A stretch of 64,000 bases of DNA, from NCBI RefSeq assembly GCF_056746865.1, contig NZ_CM163382.1, one strand, 5' to 3'. Within the stretch, counting starts at the first letter, position 1, and the number at the start of each line of letters is the position of its first letter. Of this stretch, positions 45,710 through 62,687 are shown one piece after another. Position numbers and translations under genes: made by a program. A model generated the notes under the pieces. The model saw only the letters and a list, made by a program, of their open reading frames with translations, had not been told where the DNA came from and ran no database searches.

Positions 45710-48700
45710 GTGAAGTTTTTTGCCCTCTTCATTTACCGCCCGGTGGCGACGATTTTACTGTCGGTCGCCATTACCCTGTGCGGCATACTGGGCTTCCGTA
45801 TGCTGCCGGTCGCCCCACTGCCGCAGGTCGATTTTCCGGTGATTATGGTCAGCGCCTCGCTGCCCGGTGCGTCACCAGAAACAATGGCGTCTTCCGTTGC
45901 CACGCCGCTGGAACGTTCGCTTGGGCGCATTGCCGGGGTCAGTGAAATGACCTCCAGCAGTTCGCTCGGCAGCACGCGCATTATTTTGCAGTTTGATTTT
46001 GACCGCGATATCAACGGCGCAGCGCGCGATGTGCAAGCGGCGATCAACGCCGCGCAAAGTTTGCTGCCCAGCGGGATGCCAAGCCGTCCGACCTATCGCA
46101 AAGCGAACCCGTCGGATGCGCCAATTATGATCCTGACGCTAACATCCGATACTTATTCGCAAGGTGAACTGTACGATTTTGCCTCGACGCAGCTGGCTCC
46201 GACGATTTCGCAAATCGACGGTGTCGGTGATGTCGATGTTGGCGGCAGCTCGCTACCTGCGGTGCGCGTCGGGCTGAACCCGCAGGCGCTGTTTAATCAG
46301 GGCGTCTCGCTGGACGACGTACGCACTGCCATCAGCAATGCCAACGTGCGTAAACCGCAAGGGGCGCTGGAAGATGGCACTCACCGCTGGCAGATCCAGA
46401 CTAACGATGAACTGAAAACTGCCGCTGAATATCAGCCGCTGATTATTCATTACAACAACGGCGGCGCGGTTCGTCTGGGCGATGTAGCGACGGTGACCGA
46501 CTCAGTGCAGGATGTGCGCAACGCCGGGATGACCAACGCCAAACCGGCTATTTTGCTGATGATCCGCAAGCTGCCGGAAGCCAATATTATCCAGACGGTA
46601 GACAGCATCCGGGCAAAATTACCGGAGTTGCAGGAAACCATTCCGGCGGCGATTGATCTGCAAATTGCTCAGGATCGCTCCCCCACCATTCGCGCCTCGC
46701 TGGAAGAAGTCGAGCAAACGCTGATTATCTCGGTGGCGCTGGTGATTCTGGTGGTCTTTTTATTCCTGCGCTCGGGTCGCGCCACTATTATTCCCGCCGT
46801 TGCGGTGCCGGTTTCGCTGATTGGTACGTTTGCGGCGATGTACCTGTGCGGATTCAGTCTCAATAATCTTTCGTTAATGGCGCTCACCATCGCTACTGGT
46901 TTCGTGGTGGATGACGCCATCGTGGTGCTGGAAAACATCGCCCGTCATCTGGAGGCGGGGATGAAACCGCTACAGGCCGCGCTGCAAGGCACTCGCGAAG
47001 TCGGTTTTACGGTGCTGTCGATGAGTCTGTCACTGGTGGCGGTGTTCCTGCCGCTGCTGTTGATGGGCGGATTGCCGGGCCGACTGTTACGCGAATTTGC
47101 CGTGACGCTTTCTGTCGCCATTGGGATTTCGTTGCTGGTTTCCCTGACGCTAACGCCGATGATGTGCGGCTGGATGCTAAAAGCCAGCAAGCCGCGCGAG
47201 CAAAAGCGACTACGTGGTTTTGGTCGCATGTTGGTAGCCCTGCAACAAGGCTATGGTAAGTCGCTGAAATGGGGGCTTAATCATACCCGTCTGGTGGGCG
47301 TGGTGTTGCTTGGCACCATTGCGCTGAATATCTGGCTATATATCTCGATCCCGAAAACCTTCTTCCCGGAGCAGGACACTGGCGTACTGATGGGCGGGAT
47401 ACAGGCGGATCAGAGTATTTCGTTTCAGGCGATGCGCGGCAAGTTGCAGGATTTTATGAAAATTATCCGTGACGATCCGGCGGTGGATAATGTCACCGGC
47501 TTTACCGGCGGTTCGCGGGTGAACAGTGGGATGATGTTTATCACCCTCAAGCCACACGACGAACGCAGCGAAACGGCGCAGCAAATTATCGACCGTCTGC
47601 GCGTAAAGCTGGCGAAAGAACCGGGGGCGAATCTGTTCCTGATGGCGGTACAGGATATTCGCGTTGGTGGGCGTCAGTCGAACGCCAGCTACCAGTACAC
47701 GTTGTTATCCGACGACCTGGCGGCACTGCGCGAATGGGAGCCGAAAATCCGCAAAAAACTGGCGACGTTGCCGGAACTGGCGGACGTGAACTCCGATCAG
47801 CAGGATAACGGCGCGGAGATGAATCTGGTTTACGACCGCGACACCATGGCACGGCTGGGAATCGACGTGCAGGCCGCCAACAGCCTGTTAAATAACGCCT
47901 TCGGTCAGCGGCAGATCTCGACCATTTACCAGCCGATGAACCAGTATAAAGTGGTGATGGAAGTGGATCCGCGCTATACCCAGGACATCAGTGCGCTGGA
48001 AAAAATGTTCGTTATCAATAACGAAGGAAAAGCGATCCCGCTGTCGTATTTCGCTAAATGGCAACCGGCGAATGCTCCGCTGTCGGTGAATCATCAGGGA
48101 TTATCGGCAGCCTCGACCATTTCGTTTAACCTGCCGACCGGGAAATCGCTCTCGGACGCCAGTGCGGCGATCGATCGCGCAATGACCCAGCTTGGTGTGC
48201 CTTCGACGGTACGCGGCAGTTTTGCCGGCACGGCGCAGGTGTTCCAGGAGACGATGAACTCGCAGGTGATTCTGATTATCGCCGCCATCGCCACGGTGTA
48301 TATCGTGCTGGGTATCCTTTACGAGAGTTACGTACATCCGCTGACGATTCTCTCCACCCTGCCCTCGGCGGGCGTTGGAGCGCTGCTGGCGCTGGAGCTG
48401 TTCAATGCCCCGTTCAGCCTAATCGCCCTGATAGGGATCATGCTATTAATCGGCATCGTGAAGAAAAACGCCATTATGATGGTCGATTTTGCGCTTGAAG
48501 CCCAACGGCACGGTAACCTGACGCCGCAGGAAGCTATTTTCCAGGCCTGTCTGCTGCGTTTTCGCCCGATTATGATGACTACCCTGGCGGCGCTGTTTGG
48601 TGCGCTGCCGCTGGTGTTGTCGGGCGGTGACGGCTCGGAGCTGCGCCAACCCCTGGGGATCACCATTGTCGGCGGTCTGGTAATGAGCCAGCTTCTGACG

Positions 48701-48787
48701 CTGTATACCACGCCGGTGGTGTATCTCTTTTTCGACCGTCTGCGGCTGCGTTTTTCGCGTAAACCTAAACAAACGGTAACAGAGTAA
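45710..48787 (+). CDS. mdtC: RND efflux permease MdtC (1025 aa, GTG start)
   Basis: ORF track 1025 aa; GTG immediately after the mdtB stop (TAAGTG). Confidence 0.93.
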
Positions 48788-50203
48788 ATGACAGATCTTC
48801 CCGACAACACCCGCTGGCAATTGTGGATTGTGGCTTTCGGCTTCTTTATGCAGTCGCTGGACACCACCATCGTCAACACCGCGCTTCCCTCAATGGCGCA
48901 AAGCCTCGGGGAAAGTCCGTTGCATATGCACATGGTCATTGTCTCTTATGTGCTGACCGTGGCGGTGATGTTGCCTGCCAGCGGCTGGCTGGCGGACAAA
49001 GTCGGCGTGCGCAATATTTTCTTTACCGCCATCGTGCTGTTTACTCTCGGTTCACTATTTTGCGCACTTTCCGGCACGCTGAACGAACTGTTGCTGGCAC
49101 GCGCGTTACAGGGCGTTGGCGGTGCGATGATGGTGCCGGTCGGCAGGTTGACGGTGATGAAAATCGTACCGCGCGAGCAATATATGGCGGCGATGACCTT
49201 TGTCACGTTACCCGGTCAGGTCGGTCCGCTGCTCGGTCCGGCGCTCGGCGGCCTGCTGGTGGAGTACGCGTCGTGGCACTGGATCTTTTTGATCAACATT
49301 CCGGTGGGAATTATCGGCGCGATCGCCACACTAATGTTAATGCCGAACTACACCATGCAGACGCGGCGCTTCGATCTCTCCGGCTTTTTATTGCTGGCGA
49401 TTGGCATGGCGGTATTAACCCTGGCGCTGGATGGCAGTAAAGGTACAGGTTTATCGCCGCTGGCGATTACTGGCCTGGTCGCTGTTGGCGTGGTAGCACT
49501 GGTGCTTTATCTGCTGCACGCCAGAAATAACAACCGCGCTCTTTTCAGTCTGAAACTGTTCCGCACTCGTACCTTTTCGCTGGGCCTGGCGGGGAGTTTT
49601 GCCGGACGTATCGGTAGCGGCATGTTGCCCTTTATGACACCGGTTTTCCTGCAAATTGGCCTTGGCTTCTCACCGTTTCATGCCGGACTGATGATGATCC
49701 CGATGGTGCTCGGCAGCATGGGGATGAAGCGAATTGTGGTACAGGTAGTGAATCGCTTTGGTTATCGTCGGGTACTGGTGGCAACCACGCTGGGTCTGTC
49801 GCTGGTCACCCTGTTGTTTATGACTACCGCTCTGCTGGGCTGGTACTACGTTTTGCCGTTCGTCCTGTTTTTACAAGGGATGGTCAACTCGACGCGTTTC
49901 TCCTCCATGAACACCCTGACGCTGAAAGATCTCCCGGACAATCTGGCGAGCAGCGGCAATAGTCTGCTGTCGATGATTATGCAATTGTCGATGAGTATCG
50001 GCGTCACCATCGCCGGGCTGTTGCTGGGACTTTTTGGTTCGCAGCATGTCAGCGTCGACAGCGGCACCACACAAACCGTCTTTATGTACACCTGGCTTAG
50101 CATGGCGTTTATCATCGCCCTTCCGGCGTTCATCTTTGCCAGAGTGCCGAACGATACGCATCAAAATGTAGCTATTTCGCGGCGAAAAAGGAGCGCGCAA
50201 TGA
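48788..50203 (+). CDS. mdtD: MFS transporter MdtD (471 aa)
   Basis: ORF track 471 aa; polytopic; ATG immediately after the mdtC stop. Confidence 0.9.
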
Positions 50204-51603
50204 AGTTCTGGCGACCCGGTATTACCGGCAAACTGTTTCTGGCGATTTTCGCCACCTGCATTGTCTTGCTGATCAGTATGCACTGGGCGGTGCGTATCAG
50301 TTTTGAGCGTGGCTTTATTGATTACATCAAGCATGGTAATGAACAGCGATTACAACTGTTAAGTGATGCGCTTGGCGAGCAGTATGCGCAGCATGGCAAC
50401 TGGCGCTTCCTGCGCAACAATGATCGCTTTGTCTTTCAGATCTTGCGTTCATTTGAACACGATAATTCGGAAGATAAACCCGGCCCGGGTATGCCGCCGC
50501 ACGGCTGGCGTACCCAGTTCTGGGTGGTCGATCAAAACAACAAAGTGCTGGTTGGTCCGCGAGCGCCGATTCCACCTGACGGTACACGGCGACCCATTCT
50601 GGTCAACGGTGCGGAAGTGGGTGCGGTGATTGCCTCCCCTGTTGAGCGACTGACCCGCAATACTGATATCAATTTCGATAAACAACAGCGGCAAACCAGC
50701 TGGCTGATTGTTGCTCTGGCAACGTTACTCGCGGCACTCGCTACCTTTCTGCTGGCGCGTGGTTTGCTGGCACCGGTAAAACGGCTGGTGGACGGCACGC
50801 ACAAACTGGCGGCGGGCGATTTCACTACCCGCGTAACGCCCACCAGTGAAGATGAACTGGGCAAACTGGCGCAAGACTTCAACCAGCTTGCCAGCACGCT
50901 GGAGAAAAACCAGCAAATGCGGCGCGATTTTATGGCCGATATTTCTCACGAACTGCGTACGCCATTAGCGGTGCTGCGCGGTGAACTGGAAGCCATTCAG
51001 GATGGCGTGCGTAAATTCACGCCGGAGACGGTGGCGTCTTTACAGGCGGAGGTCGGTACACTGACCAAACTGGTTGACGATCTCCATCAGTTGTCGATGT
51101 CTGATGAAGGCGCTCTCGCCTATCAAAAAGCACCGGTAGATTTGATCCCACTGCTGGAAGTGGCGGGCGGCGCATTTCGCGAACGATTCGCCAGCCGTGG
51201 CCTGAAACTGCAATTTTCCCTGCCAGACAGTATTACCGTATTTGGCGATCGCGACCGTTTAATGCAGTTATTCAATAACTTACTGGAAAACAGCCTGCGC
51301 TACACTGACAGCGGCGGTAGCCTGAAAATCTCTGCCGGGCAGCACGACAAAACGGTGCGACTGACCTTTGCCGACAGCGCGCCGGGCGTCAGTGACGATC
51401 AGCTACAAAAATTGTTTGAACGTTTTTATCGCACCGAAGGTTCCCGCAACCGAGCCAGCGGCGGTTCCGGGCTGGGGCTGGCGATTTGCCTGAACATTGT
51501 TGAAGCACATAATGGTCGCATTATTGCTGCCCATTCGCCTTTTGGCGGGGTAAGCATTACAGTAGAGTTACCGCTGGAACGGGATTTACAGAGAGAAGTA
51601 TGA
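50200..51603 (+). CDS. baeS: envelope-stress sensor histidine kinase BaeS (467 aa)
   Basis: ORF track 467 aa; H-box [11 protein letters not shown]; 4-nt overlap with mdtD. Confidence 0.92.
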
Positions 51604-52322
51604 CCGAGTTACCAATCGACGAAAACACACCGCGTATTTTGATCGTGGAAGATGAACCGAAGCTGGGACAGTTGCTCATTGATTATCTGCGTGCTGCGAG
51701 CTATGCGCCGACGCTTATCAGCCACGGCGATCAGGTACTGCCGTATGTGCGCCAGACACCACCGGATCTGATCCTGTTGGATCTGATGCTCCCTGGCACC
51801 GATGGCTTGACGCTGTGCCGGGAAATTCGTCGTTTTTCTGACATTCCTATCGTGATGGTGACGGCAAAAATAGAAGAGATCGACCGCCTGCTCGGACTGG
51901 AGATTGGCGCAGATGATTATATCTGTAAGCCGTACAGCCCACGGGAAGTGGTAGCGCGCGTCAAAACCATTTTGCGCCGTTGCAAACCGCAGCGTGAGTT
52001 GCAGCAACAGGATGCTGAAAGCCCGTTGATTATCGACGAAGGTCGTTTTCAGGCTTCATGGCGCGGTAAAATGCTTGACCTGACGCCTGCGGAATTTCGT
52101 CTGCTGAAAACGCTCTCTCATGAACCAGGAAAAGTGTTCTCCCGCGAGCAATTGCTCAATCATCTTTATGACGACTACCGCGTAGTAACCGACCGCACCA
52201 TCGACAGCCACATTAAAAACCTGCGCCGCAAGCTGGAATCTCTCGACGCCGAACAGTCCTTTATCCGTGCCGTTTACGGCGTCGGTTACCGCTGGGAAGC
52301 CGACGCCTGCCGCATCGTTTAA
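51600..52322 (+). CDS. baeR: OmpR-family response regulator BaeR (240 aa)
   Basis: ORF track 240 aa; receiver domain ([23 protein letters not shown]) + winged-helix C-terminus; 4-nt overlap with baeS. Confidence 0.93.
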
Positions 52323-52501
52323 CATTTTTACCTGCCGGAGAAGGCATTCACGCCGCATCCGGCAACATAATCCCACGCATGGTCAGCAAACTGACATTAT
52401 CTCTCCGCCCTGGCAGGCACCAGAAAATCGCTCATACTTTAATCGGTAAACAGTCCTTTTAGATGCTGTTTTCGATACGCAATTTCAATCAAGGAGTCAT
52501 T

Positions 52502-52834
52502 ATGGCTGGTTGGTTTGAACTCAGTAAAAGCAGTGATAATCAATTTCGGTTTGTGCTAAAAGCGGGCAATGGTGAGACTATCCTTACCAGCGAGCTGTAT
52601 ACCTCAAAAGCCTCTGCGGAAAAGGGCATCGCGTCGGTGCGTAGCAACAGCCCGCAAGAAGAACGCTATGAGAAAAAAACGGCAAGCAACGGCAAATTCT
52701 ATTTCAATCTGAAAGCCGCTAATCATCAAATTATCGGCTCCAGCCAGATGTACGCCACCGCGCAATCTCGTGAAACCGGAATTGCCTCCGTTAAAGCCAA
52801 TGGCACAAGCCAGACGGTGAAAGACAATACGTAA
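52502..52834 (+). CDS. yegP: YegP (tandem DUF1508/UPF0339 repeats, 110 aa)
   Basis: ORF track frame 52463..52834; start placed at ATG 52502 (MAGWFELSKSSDNQFRF) after SD aaggag; internal duplication visible. Confidence 0.85.
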   Translation: MAGWFELSKSSDNQFRFVLKAGNGETILTSELYTSKASAEKGIASVRSNSPQEERYEKKTASNGKFYFNLKAANHQIIGSSQMYATAQSRETGIASVKANGTSQTVKDNT

Positions 52835-52981
52835 TTACGATGCCGGGCGTGGGTTGTTGGCGTCCGGCGCTTTACCAGCTCCCCCCTACAGCGCTACAAT
52901 GCCCGCCCTTAAAGTGGGGGCACTCCCCTGGCCGCTTCATCAGGTGAAGCGGATCTGACCTGTCATCAGAACGAGAGAATT

Positions 52982-54343
52982 ATGTTTAAACCGGAACTCC
53001 TTTCCCCGGCGGGAACGCTGAAAAATATGCGTTACGCTTTCGCTTATGGCGCAGATGCTGTTTATGCGGGCCAGCCGCGTTACTCCCTGCGTGTGCGCAA
53101 CAACGAATTTAACCACGAAAATCTCCAGCTCGGCATCAATGAAGCCCACGCGCTGGGGAAAAAGTTTTATGTCGTGGTCAACATTGCACCGCACAACGCC
53201 AAGCTGAAAACCTTTATCCGTGACCTGAAACCGGTGGTGGAAATGGGGCCGGATGCGCTGATTATGTCCGATCCAGGGCTGATTATGCTGGTGCGTGAGC
53301 ACTTCCCTGAAATGCCGATCCATCTCTCGGTACAGGCTAACGCCGTGAACTGGGCGACGGTGAAATTCTGGCAGCAAATGGGCCTGACCCGCGTGATCCT
53401 CTCTCGCGAGCTGTCGCTGGAAGAGATTGAAGAGATCCGCAATCAGGTGCCGGATATGGAGGTAGAGATCTTCGTTCACGGCGCGCTGTGCATGGCCTAC
53501 TCCGGTCGCTGCCTGCTCTCTGGCTATATCAACAAGCGCGACCCGAACCAGGGCACCTGCACCAACGCCTGCCGCTGGGAATACAACGTCCAGGAAGGGA
53601 AAGAAGATGACGTTGGCAACATCGTACACAAGTACGAGCCGATTCCGGTGCAAAATGTTGAGCCGACGCTGGGTATCGGCGCACCAACCGACAAAGTGTT
53701 TATGATCGAAGAGGCCCAGCGTCCGGGCGAGTATATGACCGCGTTTGAAGATGAGCACGGCACTTACATCATGAACTCGAAAGATCTGCGCGCCATCGCC
53801 CATGTAGAACGCCTGACCAAAATGGGAGTGCATTCGCTGAAAATCGAAGGCCGTACCAAATCTTTCTACTATTGCGCACGCACCGCGCAGGTTTACCGTA
53901 AAGCTATCGATGACGCAGCTGCGGGAAAACCATTCGATACCAGCCTGCTGGAAACTCTGGAAGGTCTGGCGCATCGTGGCTATACCGAAGGTTTCCTGCG
54001 TCGTCATACTCACGACGATTATCAGAACTACGAATACGGTTATTCAGTTTCTGACCGCCAGCAGTTTGTTGGTGAGTTTACCGGTGAGCGCAAGGGCGAC
54101 CTCGCGGCGGTAGCGGTGAAAAATAAATTCTCCGTTGGTGACAGCCTTGAGCTGATGACGCCGCAAGGCAACATTAACTTTACCCTTGAGCACATGGAAA
54201 ACGCCAAAGGTGAAGCTATGCCGGTCGCACCAGGCGATGGTTATACTGTGTGGCTCCCGGTCCCGCAGGATCTTGAGCTAAATTACGCGCTCCTGATGCG
54301 TAATTTCTCCGGGGAAACCACGCGTAACCCCCACGGTAAGTGA
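52982..54343 (+). CDS. yegQ: peptidase U32-family protein YegQ (tRNA hydroxylation protein TrhP-like, 453 aa)
   Basis: ORF track 453 aa beginning MFKPELLSPAGTLKNMRYAFAYGADAVYAGQPRYSLR. Confidence 0.9.
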   Translation: MFKPELLSPAGTLKNMRYAFAYGADAVYAGQPRYSLRVRNNEFNHENLQLGINEAHALGKKFYVVVNIAPHNAKLKTFIRDLKPVVEMGPDALIMSDPGLIMLVREHFPEMPIHLSVQANAVNWATVKFWQQMGLTRVILSRELSLEEIEEIRNQVPDMEVEIFVHGALCMAYSGRCLLSGYINKRDPNQGTCTNACRWEYNVQEGKEDDVGNIVHKYEPIPVQNVEPTLGIGAPTDKVFMIEEAQRPGEYMTAFEDEHGTYIMNSKDLRAIAHVERLTKMGVHSLKIEGRTKSFYYCARTAQVYRKAIDDAAAGKPFDTSLLETLEGLAHRGYTEGFLRRHTHDDYQNYEYGYSVSDRQQFVGEFTGERKGDLAAVAVKNKFSVGDSLELMTPQGNINFTLEHMENAKGEAMPVAPGDGYTVWLPVPQDLELNYALLMRNFSGETTRNPHGK

Positions 54344-54479
54344 TTAATTTCGATTATTTTTCCCGGATGGAAAATTCTTAGAAACCGATCACATACAGCT
54401 GCATTTATTAAGGTTATCATCCGTTTCGCTGAAAAACATAACCCATAAAATGCTAGCTGTACCAGGAACCACCTCCTTA

Positions 54480-54514
54480 GCCTGTGTAATCTCCCTTACA
54501 CGGGCTTATTTTTT
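54480..54514 (+). terminator. rho-independent terminator-like hairpin downstream of yegQ (gcctgtgtaa-tctccc-ttacacgggc + ttattttttat)
   Basis: 10-bp stem (one G-U) followed by T-run, read directly. Confidence 0.5.
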
Positions 54515-54671
54515 ATGCATAAGCCGTATCCTGGTCACCGTCTTCCATTGACCACATCGATAGAATCCCCCTTCATAACACGATGCCTTTCACGTAACGG
54601 CATCGTGCTCGTACAGATTCCGGCTACGCACAACCAGAACGCGCATGTTTGACGCTTACCAAAAAATATTC

Positions 54672-54989
54672 TCACTCTCCACATTTGAATGTCAGACGAG
54701 CGACGCCATGTAATCCTGCACCTTCTGTCTTCAGGTCAACTATCTGCATTTTTTTGCCCTGAGTAACACAGAAATGAGCTGCATCATTTTTTACTATATT
54801 TTCTGCACCAGAAATTCTGCCCCTGGCTAAAGAAGCTTCGGCTTCGGTGTAGTATTGGTTATCGAGTTTACGCTGAATATTACTTTTATATGCAAGACCA
54901 AATTTACCGATACTTGTCTCATCATTATGTACAGCACACCCAGACATAAGAAAAACACTAATTAATGATATAGCAGCTATCTTTTTCAT
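54672..54989 (-). CDS. yegR: small lipoprotein YegR (105 aa)
   Basis: ORF track frame 54672..55049; start placed at ATG giving MKKIAAISLISVFLMSGC (lipobox). Confidence 0.85.
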   Translation of the reverse strand: MKKIAAISLISVFLMSGCAVHNDETSIGKFGLAYKSNIQRKLDNQYYTEAEASLARGRISGAENIVKNDAAHFCVTQGKKMQIVDLKTEGAGLHGVARLTFKCGE

Positions 54990-55403
54990 CTTACCTTCCC
55001 CCATTAAATACCAACGACACGCTCTGGTGTTAAAATATAATAATGGCATGATTATTATAATTGAATAGGATTATAATAAATGTTCTGTACAACATTTCCT
55101 ACATAAGTAGGAATTACATACACGGAGGCCCTTCCGGGTAACCCCATGGGGGGGTTAATATATTTTTAATAGTATATTGAAGATGCCACTGTTTAGTTGA
55201 ATATTAGGTATATGCTCTTTTTTGAAATTTACCTATGGCTACCGTTAACATTCACTGTCCCCATTGCAAGCTCCTGGTGGTAACCACTGAATCCTCTATA
55301 CTTGAACTGATTTTTTATCCTCCGACTTTCATCCTGTTCTGACTCCACCTTTTCTTTTCTGCTCTACACTATCTACAGACCAATCATAAAGGCACATACG
55401 ATC

Positions 55404-56303
55404 ATGGCAGAATTTCCCGCCAGCTTACTGATTCTTAATGGCAAAAGTACTGACAATTTACCATTGCGCGAAGCAATTATGCTGTTGCGTGAGGAAGGAA
55501 TGACGATCCATGTGCGGGTCACCTGGGAGAAAGGCGATGCCGCACGATATGTAGAGGAGGCCCGGAAGTTGGGCGTCGCAACGGTGATTGCCGGTGGTGG
55601 CGATGGCACCATTAATGAAGTTTCTACGGCGTTGATTCAGTGTGAGGGGGATGACATACCCGCGCTAGGAATTTTGCCATTAGGAACCGCCAATGATTTT
55701 GCCACCAGTGTAAGGATTCCTGAGGCACTGGATAAGGCGCTGAAACTGGCAATTGCCGGTGACGCCATTGCGATAGATATGGCGCAGGTCAACAAACAAA
55801 CCTGTTTTATTAATATGGCGACAGGCGGATTTGGGACGCGTATTACCACAGAAACGCCGGAAAAATTAAAAGCCGCGCTGGGTGGCGTCTCTTACATCAT
55901 TCATGGCTTAATGCGCATGGATACTCTGCAACCGGACCGTTGTGAGATCCGCGGTGAAAACTTTCACTGGCAAGGTGACGCCCTGGTCATTGGTATTGGT
56001 AACGGGCGTCAGGCCGGTGGCGGTCAGCAATTGTGCCCGAACGCGTTAATTAACGATGGCTTGCTGCAACTGCGCATTTTTACCGGCGATGAAATTCTTC
56101 CGGCTCTCGTATCAACATTAAAATCTGACGAAGATAACCCGAATATTATCGAAGGCGCTTCGTCGTGGTTTGATATACAAGCCCCACACGAAATCACTTT
56201 TAATCTTGATGGCGAACCGTTGAGCGGACAAAACTTTCATATTGAAATACTTCCGGCGGCGTTGCGTTGTCGATTACCACCAGATTGCCCATTGTTGCGT
56301 TAA
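55404..56303 (+). CDS. yegS: lipid kinase YegS (diacylglycerol-kinase catalytic family, 299 aa)
   Basis: ORF track 299 aa; DAGK-type motif ([13 protein letters not shown]). Confidence 0.9.
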
Positions 56304-56340
56304 TCACACTATTCTCTCTTGAACCAGGGAGAATCCGTAA

Positions 56341-56371
56341 TGCCGGATGCGGTATAAACACCTTATCCGGC
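56341..56371. repeat. REP element (tgccggatgcggtataaacaccttatccggc) in the yegS-gatR convergent gap
   Basis: REP-like palindrome read directly. Confidence 0.45.
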
Positions 56372-56384
56372 ATACAGAACAATA

Positions 56385-57164
56385 CTACACCGTAATTAAT
56401 TTTACCCGTGTCTTCTGCAATGCCAGTTTATCCACCTCTGACACGGCATCATCGGTAATAATAATGTCAATTTTTTCGATTGGGAGTACCTGATTAAAAC
56501 CGCGACGGTTAAATTTCGATGAATCGAGAACGGCAATCACTTTATTAGCGGCTGTGACCATCGCCCCGCTAATCGAATAACCTTCATTAAAGGTCGTAAT
56601 ACCATTAACCGCATCAATACCATCAGCACCGACAAACATTAAATCGGCATTAATATCCTGCAATGAACGCTCGGCAATGGAACCATGCATCGAGCGCGTT
56701 TTATGGCGGACGGTGCCACCACAGACGACCAGAGTAATGTCTTTATTTTCGGAAAGGGCAAACGCCGCCGGGAGACTGTTGGTAATCACCGTGATATTTT
56801 TGGCGGTCATTAAACCTTCGGCGATAAGCATTGTCGTACTTCCGCTGTCGAGAATAACGGTCATCCCTTCGTGGATCATTTTGACTGCCGCTTGCGCTAT
56901 TCTGTTTTTTGGCGCACTGGCGAGCTGAAATCGCTCTTTAAACCCAACTTCCTGGGTCTCGGTTTCACTATTACCGGACATTATTTTCGCCGCACCGCCA
57001 TGAAAGCGCGTAACCACGCCTTTTTGTTCGAGAAAGCGCAAATCGGCACGGATTGTCGCTTCCGAGGCAGCAAATACTCCCGCCAGATCCTGAACAAGCA
57101 CGGTTCCCTGTTCATTCACTAATTGGATGATCTTATTCCTTCGCTCGAATGAATTCATCGTCAT
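56385..57164 (-). CDS. gatR: DeoR-family galactitol operon repressor GatR, intact (259 codons)
   Basis: ORF track 259 aa; N-terminal HTH (RRNKIIQLVNEQGTVLVQDLAGVF) + DeoR sugar-binding domain; downstream of gatD. Confidence 0.88.
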   Translation of the reverse strand: MTMNSFERRNKIIQLVNEQGTVLVQDLAGVFAASEATIRADLRFLEQKGVVTRFHGGAAKIMSGNSETETQEVGFKERFQLASAPKNRIAQAAVKMIHEGMTVILDSGSTTMLIAEGLMTAKNITVITNSLPAAFALSENKDITLVVCGGTVRHKTRSMHGSIAERSLQDINADLMFVGADGIDAVNGITTFNEGYSISGAMVTAANKVIAVLDSSKFNRRGFNQVLPIEKIDIIITDDAVSEVDKLALQKTRVKLITV

Positions 57165-57263
57165 TTACCCATATTCAATTGTGGCTAGTGTAAACGAAGG
57201 GGGACCATTGGTGAATGATCTGTTTTGCACAATACCGGGCCAGCATCACGCTGGCCCGCGGTT

Positions 57264-58304
57264 TCAGGGAATAAGCAACACTTTGCCCGGCATAGCATTA
57301 CGAGCGATGTCACGCACCGCCTGGGCGAAGCTTTCAAAGCTTCCACGGTGAGCGATTAATGGCTCCAGGCTTAACTTACGTTCTGTCAGCAACCGGCTCG
57401 CCGTTTCCCACTCCTGCCCCGGCCAAGGGCTGGAGTAGTTCATCCAACTGCCGATAACCGTCAGCTCTTTACGCAATATTTTGCCAAACGTTGCCGATAT
57501 TAAATGCAGATCCTGATGCAACGTGCCCACCAGCGCCAGTTGGGCATGAGGACCGGCAATCTCTACCGCCAGTTCGACAGTTTGCGGTACGCCAGCCGTC
57601 TCGAGGATAAGCTGATTAAAGCGCAGCTCGCGTAAAACGCCCTGCATTTGCGGCGCGCTCATTTCAAGGCTGTTAAATGTTTGCATCGCACCGAAAGATT
57701 TTGCCAGTGCCAGTTTTTCTGAGCTAATGTCGATAGCCGTCACACTCTTTGCTCCCAGCGCGACAGCGCACTGAATAGCCAGCAGGCCAATGGTTCCGGC
57801 ACCAATAATAATAACGTTTTTATTCTCACAACCTTGCGCTAAATGAAAAGCATGCAGGCCAACGGTAATCGGTTCAATAAAAGCCCCATCCTCAATAGGC
57901 ATATCCGTGGGTAGAGCAAAGACATTTTTTCGCTTAACGACAATATATTCAGCAAATCCACCATCACGCCGTGAGCCAATAAAATCATATTTTGCGCACT
58001 GGGAATAAAACCCTTTCAAACACTCTGGACAAGTAAAACAGGGTAATAACGGCACACAGGCAACCGCATCGCCAGGGTGTAAATCATCAACACCGGATCC
58101 CACCGCATCAATATAGCCGCTAAATTCATGGCCTAACGTTATTGGATAATAATGTGCACCATTTTTAAATATCCTGGGTAAATCGGAACCACATAAGCCC
58201 GAGCTGGCAATTTTTACCCGTACCTCATCCTGATGTTTAATTTCAGGAATGACGCTTTCTGCAACGCGCACGATACCATCAGTATCATTCACCACTGATT
58301 TCAT
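57264..58304 (-). CDS. gatD: galactitol-1-phosphate 5-dehydrogenase GatD (Zn-dependent MDR, 346 aa)
   Basis: ORF track 346 aa; Zn-ADH motifs (GHEFSG, Cys cluster CFTCPEC). Confidence 0.93.
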   Translation of the reverse strand: MKSVVNDTDGIVRVAESVIPEIKHQDEVRVKIASSGLCGSDLPRIFKNGAHYYPITLGHEFSGYIDAVGSGVDDLHPGDAVACVPLLPCFTCPECLKGFYSQCAKYDFIGSRRDGGFAEYIVVKRKNVFALPTDMPIEDGAFIEPITVGLHAFHLAQGCENKNVIIIGAGTIGLLAIQCAVALGAKSVTAIDISSEKLALAKSFGAMQTFNSLEMSAPQMQGVLRELRFNQLILETAGVPQTVELAVEIAGPHAQLALVGTLHQDLHLISATFGKILRKELTVIGSWMNYSSPWPGQEWETASRLLTERKLSLEPLIAHRGSFESFAQAVRDIARNAMPGKVLLIP

Positions 58305-58351
58305 AAAAACTCCTGATTGTTAAGGGGGATAAACTCCCCCTCAGGTAAAAA

Positions 58352-59707
58352 TTATTCTGCGAGAACGGCTTTCTCTTGTTTAATAAAACCACACGCTCTA
58401 CGCCAGGTCATGAAAATACCGGTAAGATAAATGGCACCGATAATAATGAAACCGGGAATATTTTGCGGGGAGAAAACCTGAATCAGTAACCAGGTAATGG
58501 GAGAACCGCCCTGATCCATTGAAGCCACCATACCCCCGGCTTTTAACGCCCCAGCATTAGCCGCCAGTTGGGTGTGCAAACCAATAGTTTGCGTCGCGAT
58601 CCACAGGGTGATGCTCATAATGATGACACCCGAGATTAAGGTGCGGAACAGATTTCCACGATGCACCGCGACCGCCATCGCCACGAAGAAGCCGATGGTG
58701 GCAAGATCGCCAAACGGCAACACCTGATTACCCGGCACACAAACAGCAATTAAAATGGTGAGAGGGATAAAAATCAGGCTTGCCGATACCACCGCCGTAT
58801 GCCCCAGCAGCAACGCCGGATCAAGGCCAATCAGGAACTCCTGACCGCCGAACTTCGCCTGTAAACGACTACGGGCCTGCTTAGCGATGGGCGTTAAACC
58901 ATCCATGATAGGTTTAATCACCCGTGGCATCAGCAGCATAACTGCCGCCGTTTTTACCGCCAGCTGCAATACACCTTTGACATCGTAACCCGCGAGGATG
59001 CCGATAATCAGCCCCATCACAAAACCCACGGTGACAGGCTCGCCAAACGGACCAAATTTGCGCTGAATATCGTCGGCGCTAAATTTAATACGGTTAACGC
59101 CTGGGATTTTCTCGATGATAGCATCCACCAGCACCGCAATTGGCCCCAGATACGCCGACGTACCGTGCGGAATAGCAATGCCTTCCAGCTCAAAGAAATT
59201 TCGGGTATCGCGGGCAAACCAGTCGCCGAGCTTATAAACAAACGCCGCGTGAATTACCACACCCGCCATCCCTATCATCCATGAACCGGTTGCCAGATGC
59301 AGCAACGCGCCGGTGAAGGTCATATGCCAGATATTCCAGATATCAACATTTACCACCCGCGTCATACGGGTCAGTAGCATCGCCACGTTAACCAGAATCG
59401 CAATCGGAATCGCCACTAGCGCAATTTGCGACGCCCAGGTCATTGGTGAAGAGCCCGGCCAACCGACATCGACCACATGCAGATTCAGGTCAAAATTTTC
59501 CGCCATCGCTTTCGCCGCCGGACCAATGGAATCCAGCATTAAGCCAATCACAAGGCCAATGCCAACAAAGCCAATCCCGATATGCAGACCCGCTTTAAAG
59601 CAATCGCCTGCCTTCATGCCTAATATTTTAGAAAAAATAATGATGACAATCGGCAGCATCACCGTAGGGCCGAGGTCGAGAATATAACGCATGACTTCTG
59701 AAAACAT
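58352..59707 (-). CDS. gatC: PTS galactitol-specific EIIC GatC (451 aa)
   Basis: ORF track 451 aa; polytopic membrane protein; synteny. Confidence 0.93.
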   Translation of the reverse strand: MFSEVMRYILDLGPTVMLPIVIIIFSKILGMKAGDCFKAGLHIGIGFVGIGLVIGLMLDSIGPAAKAMAENFDLNLHVVDVGWPGSSPMTWASQIALVAIPIAILVNVAMLLTRMTRVVNVDIWNIWHMTFTGALLHLATGSWMIGMAGVVIHAAFVYKLGDWFARDTRNFFELEGIAIPHGTSAYLGPIAVLVDAIIEKIPGVNRIKFSADDIQRKFGPFGEPVTVGFVMGLIIGILAGYDVKGVLQLAVKTAAVMLLMPRVIKPIMDGLTPIAKQARSRLQAKFGGQEFLIGLDPALLLGHTAVVSASLIFIPLTILIAVCVPGNQVLPFGDLATIGFFVAMAVAVHRGNLFRTLISGVIIMSITLWIATQTIGLHTQLAANAGALKAGGMVASMDQGGSPITWLLIQVFSPQNIPGFIIIGAIYLTGIFMTWRRACGFIKQEKAVLAE

Positions 59708-59710
59708 AGG

Positions 59711-59995
59711 TCACCCCTGTAAGATAGTCAGAATTTTATTTTGTAATGCTTCGATACCGACACCAGAAACAAAAGGCATGCCGTGAACTAACGGAATATC
59801 GCCAAAACTACGGTCAACTTTGGCGGTAGTACATATCAAATGCACGCCATCCATATAGGTCTCTATTTCATTAACCCGACACTGGATTAATTCAACAGGA
59901 ATATTATGACTCTGACACAACTCTTTAATTTCTTCCGCCGCCATCGTAGAGGTCGCAACCGCGCCTCCGCAAGCGACAATAATCTTGCGTTTCAT
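59711..59995 (-). CDS. gatB: PTS galactitol-specific EIIB GatB (94 aa)
   Basis: ORF track 94 aa beginning [16 protein letters not shown] (active-site Cys). Confidence 0.93.
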
Positions 59996-60025
59996 AAATA
60001 GTCCTTTTTATTGTTACAGAGGGAT

Positions 60026-60478
60026 TTATTCGTCTGAATCTAAAACATACTTTGTGAAGTATTCCTTTAACTGAGTTTCAGGAAGAGTAATTAGTGTCTC
60101 GACGATCTCGGGCTGTTGTAACTTGCCAAATAAACAGCGTAAAAGTTTCAATTGCTGCTGCGGATTTTCCACAATCAACGCAATAACCAACGATACCGCC
60201 ACGTCATTATCATCATCCGCTTGCTGAAAATGAACTTTATTTGTTGGCCTTAACAGATAAATGGCTGACGACTTAGCATGAATCGCCTCACAATGCGGTA
60301 TTGCAATGGCGTGCTGCTCAAGCATTATCCCGGTAGGGAATTCTGCTTCTCTGGCAATTAATGCCTGTGGCCAGGTATCATGAACCACACCTTTCGCGAG
60401 CATCTCATTACCGATATGGGTTAAAACTTCGCTACGATCGACAAAAGAAATTCCGCTACGAACAAACAGGTTAGTCAT
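60026..60478 (-). CDS. gatA: PTS galactitol-specific EIIA GatA (150 aa)
   Basis: ORF track 150 aa; synteny. Confidence 0.93.
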   Translation of the reverse strand: MTNLFVRSGISFVDRSEVLTHIGNEMLAKGVVHDTWPQALIAREAEFPTGIMLEQHAIAIPHCEAIHAKSSAIYLLRPTNKVHFQQADDDNDVAVSLVIALIVENPQQQLKLLRCLFGKLQQPEIVETLITLPETQLKEYFTKYVLDSDE

Positions 60479-60487
60479 ATACCGTCC

Positions 60488-62687
<2,200 letters not shown>

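Follow-up and report, generated by a model that had tools for sequence, protein, structure and literature searches.

The short interval between yegQ and yegR raises the question of what an apparently empty attachment site contains. In the 64,000-nucleotide stretch of contig NZ_CM163382.1 (assembly GCF_056746865.1) analysed here, hereafter the window, yegQ ends at 54343 and the minus-strand yegR at 54672, leaving a gap of 328 bp (54344-54671). We mapped yegR from the RefSeq annotation of CFSAN061770, which is 100% identical over the region, and this annotation and the open reading frame (ORF) list agree with the spacing given in a preliminary description of the sequence. The same description reported a clean terminator hairpin and no phage-related ORF in the gap, stated that E. 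coli K-12 carries a P2-like remnant (ogrK, yegZ) at this junction, and proposed that the window preserves the uninterrupted ancestral site, useful for strain placement and as a potential phage attachment locus. As described, the ORF list holds no phage-related ORF in the gap, and tblastn searches with P2 Int, Ogr and gpD returned no match in window positions 54400-55420. The analyses presented below give us good confidence that the gap is an unoccupied P2 site located in the end of the small RNA (sRNA) gene cyaR, and that the DNA on the yegR side holds the worn ends of an older P2-type insertion (Table 1).

Table 1. Coordinates of the genes, sites and putative phage relics between yegQ and yegS in the window.
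Feature	Position	Strand	Basis and remarks
yegQ (trhP) CDS, 453 aa	52982-54343	+	ORF list and RefSeq annotation of the 100%-identical CFSAN061770; left gap boundary
Candidate CRP-like site TTAGAAACCGATCACA	54378-54393	+	Centre about 42 nt upstream of the cyaR start; two mismatches to TGTGA-N6-TCACA
cyaR (ryeE) sRNA gene, 87 nt	54428-54514	+	Rfam RF00112; extent by alignment to MG1655 cyaR (b4438), identical
CyaR intrinsic terminator (11-bp stem, 6-nt loop, UAUUUUUU tail)	54479-54514	+	Terminator scan, RNA fold, Rfam structure line
P2-type attB core AATCTCCCTTACACGGGCTTATTTTTT	54488-54514	+	27/27 to the P2 attP core; prophage junctions of other strains lie here
Probable relic of the P-arm side of a P2-type attP	54515-54575	.	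Local alignment to P2; co-linear in multiple alignment
12-bp inverted repeat downstream of yegR	54579-54607	-	At the position of P2's ogr/F-operon terminator; without clear U run
yegR CDS, 105-aa predicted lipoprotein (PF27694)	54672-54989	-	RefSeq annotation; inside the putative fossil segment
AT-rich spacer from yegR to the right-end relic, 31-40% G+C	54990-55260	.	Composition profile; holds the yegR promoter region
Probable relic of the int-proximal (P') side of a P2-type attP, with degenerate core	55261-55316	.	Local alignment; aligned with P2, 720R8 and E. albertii attR
yegS upstream region	55317-55403	+	Directly follows a cyaR-type core in the divergent Escherichia L112 and in E. albertii
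yegS (lipid kinase)	55404-56303	+	ORF list, annotation, tblastn; follows cyaR in most of the Enterobacterales loci listed

The annotation of the gap needs a correction, as it holds the gene for CyaR. The Rfam model CyaR/RyeE (RF00112) matched 54426-54511 over its full length (model positions 1-85 of 85); the match scored 100.7 bits, well above the gathering threshold of 47, with an E value of 1.6e-20. The gene starts 85 nt past the yegQ stop codon. The predicted fold comprises two hairpins and the terminator (-19.8 kcal/mol, z -3.0). Furthermore, yegQ neighbours cyaR both here and in nearly all of the at least 120 Enterobacterales loci described below. The full-length model match, the identity to the MG1655 sequence and the yegQ neighbour make the window sequence a member of the CyaR family by each sequence criterion tested, and this copy is presumably expressed. 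The sole hit of the terminator scan in the gap was an 11-bp stem at 54479-54506 followed by TATTTTTT. Hence, the single, clean hairpin noted earlier does exist but, because it sits at the 3' end of cyaR, it is CyaR's own terminator rather than a yegQ terminator in empty DNA. Transcription of cyaR is CRP-dependent. The CRP-like site upstream is, by its position, a candidate element of the cyaR promoter, two-mismatch matches being no commoner across the window than expected by chance.

The 3' end of cyaR is also where the gap resembles a phage. Comparison with phage records revealed identity to P2 (NC_001895) over 28 bases (54488-54515), in a part of the P2 record annotated as 'attP' and 'Int attP core'. 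The 27-nt core comprises the last 27 nt of cyaR, spanning the last 2 nt of the 5' stem arm of the terminator, the loop, the whole 3' stem arm and the U tail. It occurs once in the window, and 100 dinucleotide-preserving shuffles of the window yielded 0 matches, even with three mismatches allowed. The search for a P2-type core that the preliminary description had suggested was thus positive and, as the core identity indicates, the gap is the site on the chromosome where phage P2 and related phages attach, unoccupied here, and recombination would be expected to occur at this copy. We take it to be the site named locI in the P2 literature. With the P2 site in E. coli it shares an identical core, a position after yegQ and prophages inserted at the same point; there is no substantive difference, and the window represents the unoccupied state. 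Barreiro and Haggard-Ljungquist reportedly sequenced this attachment site in 1992. As the annotations of MG1655 and P2 show, it is already known that the P2 site overlaps the end of cyaR, that it occurs unoccupied and that K-12 has a remnant there. One literature match to the terms CyaR, 'phage P2' and 'attachment site' was rejected, as it really concerned P22 transduction and the sdsR locus.

The location of the core suggests how integration could spare the sRNA. The P2 integrase, a tyrosine recombinase assisted by IHF, would exchange strands between the end of cyaR and the identical attP core. Because the host and phage cores are identical, the incoming phage end would restore the cyaR terminator and the sRNA gene would survive integration. 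This would also explain why cyaR is intact beside the prophage remnant of K-12: its 3' end would have been replaced by an identical phage copy. Integrases that target the 3' ends of structured RNA genes (tRNA, tmRNA or sRNA) share this arrangement, with a core that overlaps the end of the gene and a phage copy that restores it, and those targeting tRNA genes use the strategy proposed here, in which the phage end rebuilds the target gene. P2-type integrases have been described as integrating mostly 'between other genes', 186-type relatives of P2 in tRNA genes, and Fels-2/SopE-phi in ssrA (PMC3448106). In contrast to that description, the target in the window is the terminator of an sRNA gene.

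Alignment with the K-12 genome confirmed that a P2-like remnant missing from the window occupies this junction in K-12. The MG1655 annotation lists trhP, cyaR (2167114-2167200), the 'cryptic prophage PR-X' (2167183-2167811), ogrK, the pseudogene yegZ and yegR, and its yegQ-yegR gap is not equally short but measures 959 bp, 631 bp more than in the window. At the base level, the two sequences are identical up to and including AATCTCCCTTACACGGGCTTATTTTTT. K-12 then continues into the P arm, the ogr terminator, ogrK and the 3' end of gene D, and its phage sequence ends in a truncated core repeat, TACACGGGCTTATTTTTTT. The flank ATGCATAAGCC, which adjoins TACACGGGCTTATTTTTTT in K-12, directly follows the single core copy in the window; outside the 631-bp insert, the two genomes are co-linear. 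Both the alignment gap and the negative tblastn searches with Ogr and gpD place ogrK and the gene-D fragment yegZ outside the window sequence, and the alignment identifies the window as not a carrier of PR-X.

Other strains are occupied at exactly the same point, in support of the proposal that the junction is a phage attachment locus. Four of the sequences compared have whole P2-like prophages here: in CFSAN061768 and elppa10 the prophage starts right after the core (ogr, D, U and the tape-measure gene onward), and in O157:H7 ATCC 43890 and the prophage-derived record vB_EcoM-720R8 its int-proximal junction adjoins yegR. The core is present at both prophage junctions, the left one as seen in K-12, CFSAN061768 and elppa10, the right one in 720R8, O157:H7 ATCC 43890 and E. 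albertii. Using a 161-bp probe across the core, we found a contiguous, unoccupied junction in 4,217 of 5,423 complete E. coli genomes (78%) and an interrupted one in the other ~22%. Occupancy of the P2 site is itself a textbook polymorphism: K-12 carries the remnant, and most other E. coli have a free site. Because the attachment core lies inside cyaR, calls of occupancy belong at 54488-54514. Over 16 kb (46000-62000), the window shares at least 99% identity with about 105 genomes and ~100% with the best-scoring 30 of those listed, whose sources are humans, poultry and wastewater. The suggested use for strain placement did not hold up: occupancy is a fast-changing character of little use for that purpose, because ~78% of the genomes are unoccupied and the O157:H7 strain, whose YegR protein has the same accession as that of the window-identical CFSAN061770, is nonetheless occupied.

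The use of the cyaR terminator as a landing site extends beyond E. coli. A cyaR-pattern scan of species-representative genomes (GTDB, one per species) recovered at least 120 loci across the Enterobacterales. All of these loci conserve the loop AATCTCCCTT, and their agreement with the full core ranges from 18 to 27 of 27 positions. In at least seven of them (E. albertii, four Citrobacter, one Enterobacter and one Buttiauxella), the local version of the core is directly followed by a P2-like left arm. The presence of P2-like arms at cyaR cores in several genera points to the cyaR terminator as a landing site of this phage family across the Enterobacteriaceae. Two loci deserve separate mention. 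In E. albertii NBRC 107761 (L012, 4930-8327), a 3.4-kb P2-like remnant lies between two cyaR-type cores; its P-arm homology stops after GTCCAC at ~5003 and its right end keeps a P2-like int-proximal junction. In E. coli SCPM-O-B-8794 (L063), the cyaR core is followed by a different element, beginning ATACGTAACCAATTGAATTAAAAGATTTGTTTCTGGTTACGCCC, with a P2-like IHF-site region and a divergent arm sequence; this element is possibly a P2 relative with another arm specificity on the same core.

Examination of the DNA beyond the core revealed similarity to phage attachment arms on both sides of yegR. From the core onward, a multiple alignment placed the window co-linear with P2, PR-X of K-12 and the Citrobacter, Buttiauxella and Enterobacter elements. 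The stretch ATGCATAA corresponds to phage ACGCGTAA, the next ~16 nt, including the IHF site, are missing, and 54531-54575 matches the Int-binding sites of the P2 P arm with one of the two TGTGGNC repeats intact; on the opposite strand, the intact repeat reads TGTGGTCA, and the second has changed from TGTGGAC to TGGAAGAC. The alignment of this left relic to the P2 P arm scored 21, compared to 8.7 +/- 1.3 (maximum 17) in dinucleotide-preserving shuffles, none of which (0 of 2000) reached 21. On the other side of yegR, the right relic scored 19 when aligned to the left half of P2 attP together with the core (shuffles 8.6 +/- 1.3, maximum 17; 0 of 2000 reached 19). Three control segments from the same AT-rich DNA scored 7-8 in the arm alignment. 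The right relic includes a second, degenerate core at 55290-55316 (AATCCTCTATACTTGAACTGATTTTTT; 18 of its 27 positions match the P2 core), which differs between E. coli strains, whereas the cyaR core does not, a pattern that fits selection on the sRNA only. A sensitive blastn comparison of the segment between the two cores with four P2-type loci returned the arm match only, and the spacer upstream of yegR had no similarity to phage records except to host flank. The inverted repeat at 54579-54607, found by inverted-repeat search and in the minus-strand fold and not called by the terminator scan, is a possible yegR terminator according to these predictions. We regard the arm relics as probably genuine fossil ends of a P2-type element.

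Genomes that lack yegR provided a test of the boundaries of the insertion. The divergent Escherichia L112 (labelled E. coli E69), which is ~92-93% identical to E. coli genomes here and whose locus in the GTDB scan is separate from the E. coli-labelled L063, has a perfect core followed directly by TGTACCACGACTTTCATCCTGTTCTGAC and yegS. The second core of the P2-like remnant in E. albertii is followed by the same yegS flank, also without yegR. In the window, this flank (ATCCTCCGACTTTCATCCTGTTCTGAC) resumes at 55317, immediately past the degenerate core, and a search with the L112 junction returned matches that start at this end of the right relic in more than 5,400 E. coli genomes. The yegS start lies within ~440 nt of the core in 68 of the at least 120 Enterobacterales loci, none of which had a yegR homolog by tblastn. 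The cyaR and yegS halves of the L112 junction are close enough to be joined in only one of the 5,423 E. coli genomes, FDAARGOS_1077. This genome keeps both att relics and owes the proximity to a secondary deletion of 306 bp (equivalent to window ~54628-54933) that removed most of yegR, which makes the gene dispensable in at least that strain. The yegR-less Escherichia sampled comprise two lineages, L112 and E. albertii, with E. fergusonii and the named cryptic clades outside the sample. The genomes compared point to yegQ-cyaR-yegS as the older arrangement. Hence, the claim of an uninterrupted ancestral site stands in one respect, the K-12 remnant being missing, and fails in another, given the P2 arm relics, the second core and the yegR-less outgroups; the site is 'ancestral' only relative to the K-12 remnant.

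The sequence of insertions at this locus may be reconstructed as follows. In the E. coli lineage, a P2-type element would have inserted itself into the cyaR core, precisely where cyaR met the promoter region of yegS, and then decayed to 802 bp containing both arm relics, the degenerate second core and yegR, a segment that would now be fixed in E. coli and inert. Later P2-type phages would have kept using the intact core, constrained by the sRNA. In K-12, one such prophage would have been reduced to 631 bp, with the P arm, ogrK, the 3' end of gene D and a truncated second core. This order of events is the one we infer. PR-X has the same integration point and orientation as the site in the window, and its left end (core and P arm) is the younger counterpart of the window relic; it retains the IHF site together with both arm repeats, the ogr terminator and one gene that is intact, whereas the window relic has no phage coding traces. 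The segment 54515-55316 resembles a decayed prophage in having core repeats at both ends, arms in attL/attR order, no equivalent in the yegR-less relatives compared and an atypical composition (31-40% G+C versus ~50-57% in the flanking yegQ and yegS). Phage genes or pseudogenes, which a decayed prophage would also be expected to hold, were not detected inside it, with no trace of Int, Ogr or gpD by tblastn. We lean only slightly toward the fuller reading that the whole segment, yegR included, is the last 802 bp of an ancient P2-type element fixed before E. coli diversified. Because the segment has no trace of phage proteins, yegR was found in no genuine phage genome and the distant homologs inspected are not in prophages, the interior may differ in origin from the ends: it may be cargo brought by the phage, DNA that replaced the original interior later, or what a small cassette with att flanks carried.

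The simplest alternative is that the intergenic region is pristine and was never interrupted, the hairpin terminates yegQ and K-12 differs by a single phage insertion. Such a history would account for the missing 631-bp insert in an otherwise co-linear sequence, for a gap without phage ORFs and for the likeness of most E. coli genomes to the window. It is contradicted on the terminator, which belongs to a gene with its own start 85 nt past the yegQ stop, and it leaves unexplained the significant homology of the flank to both P2 attP arms, the second degenerate core and the position of yegS, not yegR, after cyaR in the outgroups; we thus consider it improbable. These same similarities could be attributed to chance or composition, with yegR brought by an unrelated insertion or lost in the outgroups. 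The relics are indeed short (45 and 57 nt) and 68-78% identical, the right one ends in a T run within an AT-rich region, and a generic repeat finder did not pick up the second core. Against coincidence, both alignments outscored all 2000 shuffles by ~8-9 standard deviations while the AT-rich controls stayed at background, and the relics have the right order and orientation, the left one adjoining the core and the right one lying exactly at the insertion boundary. Chance similarity is, accordingly, the explanation to which we give very little credence.

A third possibility accepts the relics and changes the nature of what lay between them. The 802-bp segment could be what is left of a small cassette or satellite-like element, flanked by att sites and carrying yegR, that a P2-type integrase supplied in trans inserted, and perhaps once excised, before it decayed at its present position. 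Such an element would leave the two arm relics and the two cores, correctly ordered, around a cargo of only ~680 bp, and no trace of phage structural or regulatory genes, and the sporadic occurrence of yegR-family genes in unrelated contexts, one of them an IS-rich island, is the behaviour of mobile cargo. However, we found no mini-element with intact arms in the phage records, the reduction of a prophage to a few hundred bases is documented at this very site in K-12, and long decay would explain the loss of the IHF site and the degenerate core just as well. We judge a cassette unlikely, and continue to favour the worn ends of a P2-type insertion beside an unoccupied P2 site. The searchable literature, which did not include the original 1992 paper on the site, yielded no description of an older relic around yegR, and we claim no priority.

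The distribution of yegR bears on its possible origin. YegR has a predicted lipoprotein signal peptide with Cys18 and belongs to family PF27694, although our local copy of Pfam returned no significant domain; its homologs are almost all from E. coli or Shigella. Distant members of the family (44-66% identity) are found in unrelated neighbourhoods of other Enterobacterales: one lies in Enterobacter sp. BIDMC 29 within an island that contains IS and omptin sequences, another downstream of dnaG close to a UDG-family gene, and a third next to a bestrophin-like gene (L128, 6001-6318; L130, 6001-6321; L132, 2495-2809). None of the distant homologs inspected had a P2-like prophage context. These contexts suggest that YegR represents a family of small, mobile orphan lipoprotein genes. 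A match of YegR to the phage protein family phrog_21109 (2e-72) raised the possibility that yegR is a phage gene, which we rejected, as the phage records that carry yegR are prophage-derived sequences running into host flank. Two records contain it in this form, ON470606.1 (L004, 3356-3673) and AY639599.1 (L005), and one of them, the 'Phage TP' record, is a K-12-like chromosome fragment with yegQ (labelled 'putative protease'), ogr and part of yegR. PHROG 21109 is thus probably a host contamination of a phage protein family. We also noted an indel of ~170 bp beside the yegR stop codon (window 54669-54670), present in about one-sixth of the sampled E. coli genomes and absent from the window (L006, ~1075-1245; L004, 3181-3351). 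The 720R8 record assigns it a hypothetical protein of 41 aa, encoded on the same strand as yegR, and its phage match is to that host flank only.

An older relic at this site would mean that a single sRNA terminator has been used repeatedly as a landing site over a long period, and it offers a hypothesis for the origin of the orphan gene yegR. It also cautions that 'empty' attachment sites can already hold fossils of earlier occupants. If the fossil reading is true, the species-wide lipoprotein gene yegR would be domesticated or hitch-hiking cargo borne by a phage, and the Int arm repeat surviving beside attB might affect the use that P2 makes of its preferred site. Furthermore, with later P2-type phages reusing the core, every subsequent P2 integration, PR-X included, would be nested against an older attL-type relic. 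The K-12 and window copies of cyaR would then differ in what follows them: the PR-X remnant in K-12 and, directly, the older relic in the window.

Additional variation was evident around the site. The AT-rich spacer between yegR and yegS contains G+C-rich palindromes (GGAGGCCCTTCCGGG and AACCCCATGGGGGGGTT) followed by AATATATTTTT at 55103-55167, and these vary between strains, as a comparison with FDAARGOS_1077 (L137) illustrates. Upstream, some E. coli carry a ParD/ParE toxin-antitoxin pair between yegP and yegQ (CFSAN061768; L007, 18386-18980); the yegP-yegQ spacer of the window is only 147 bp long (52835-52981) and lacks the pair. Downstream, the gene for the DeoR-type repressor GatR (56385-57164, 259 aa) is intact in the window, whereas the MG1655 copy is split by IS3E.
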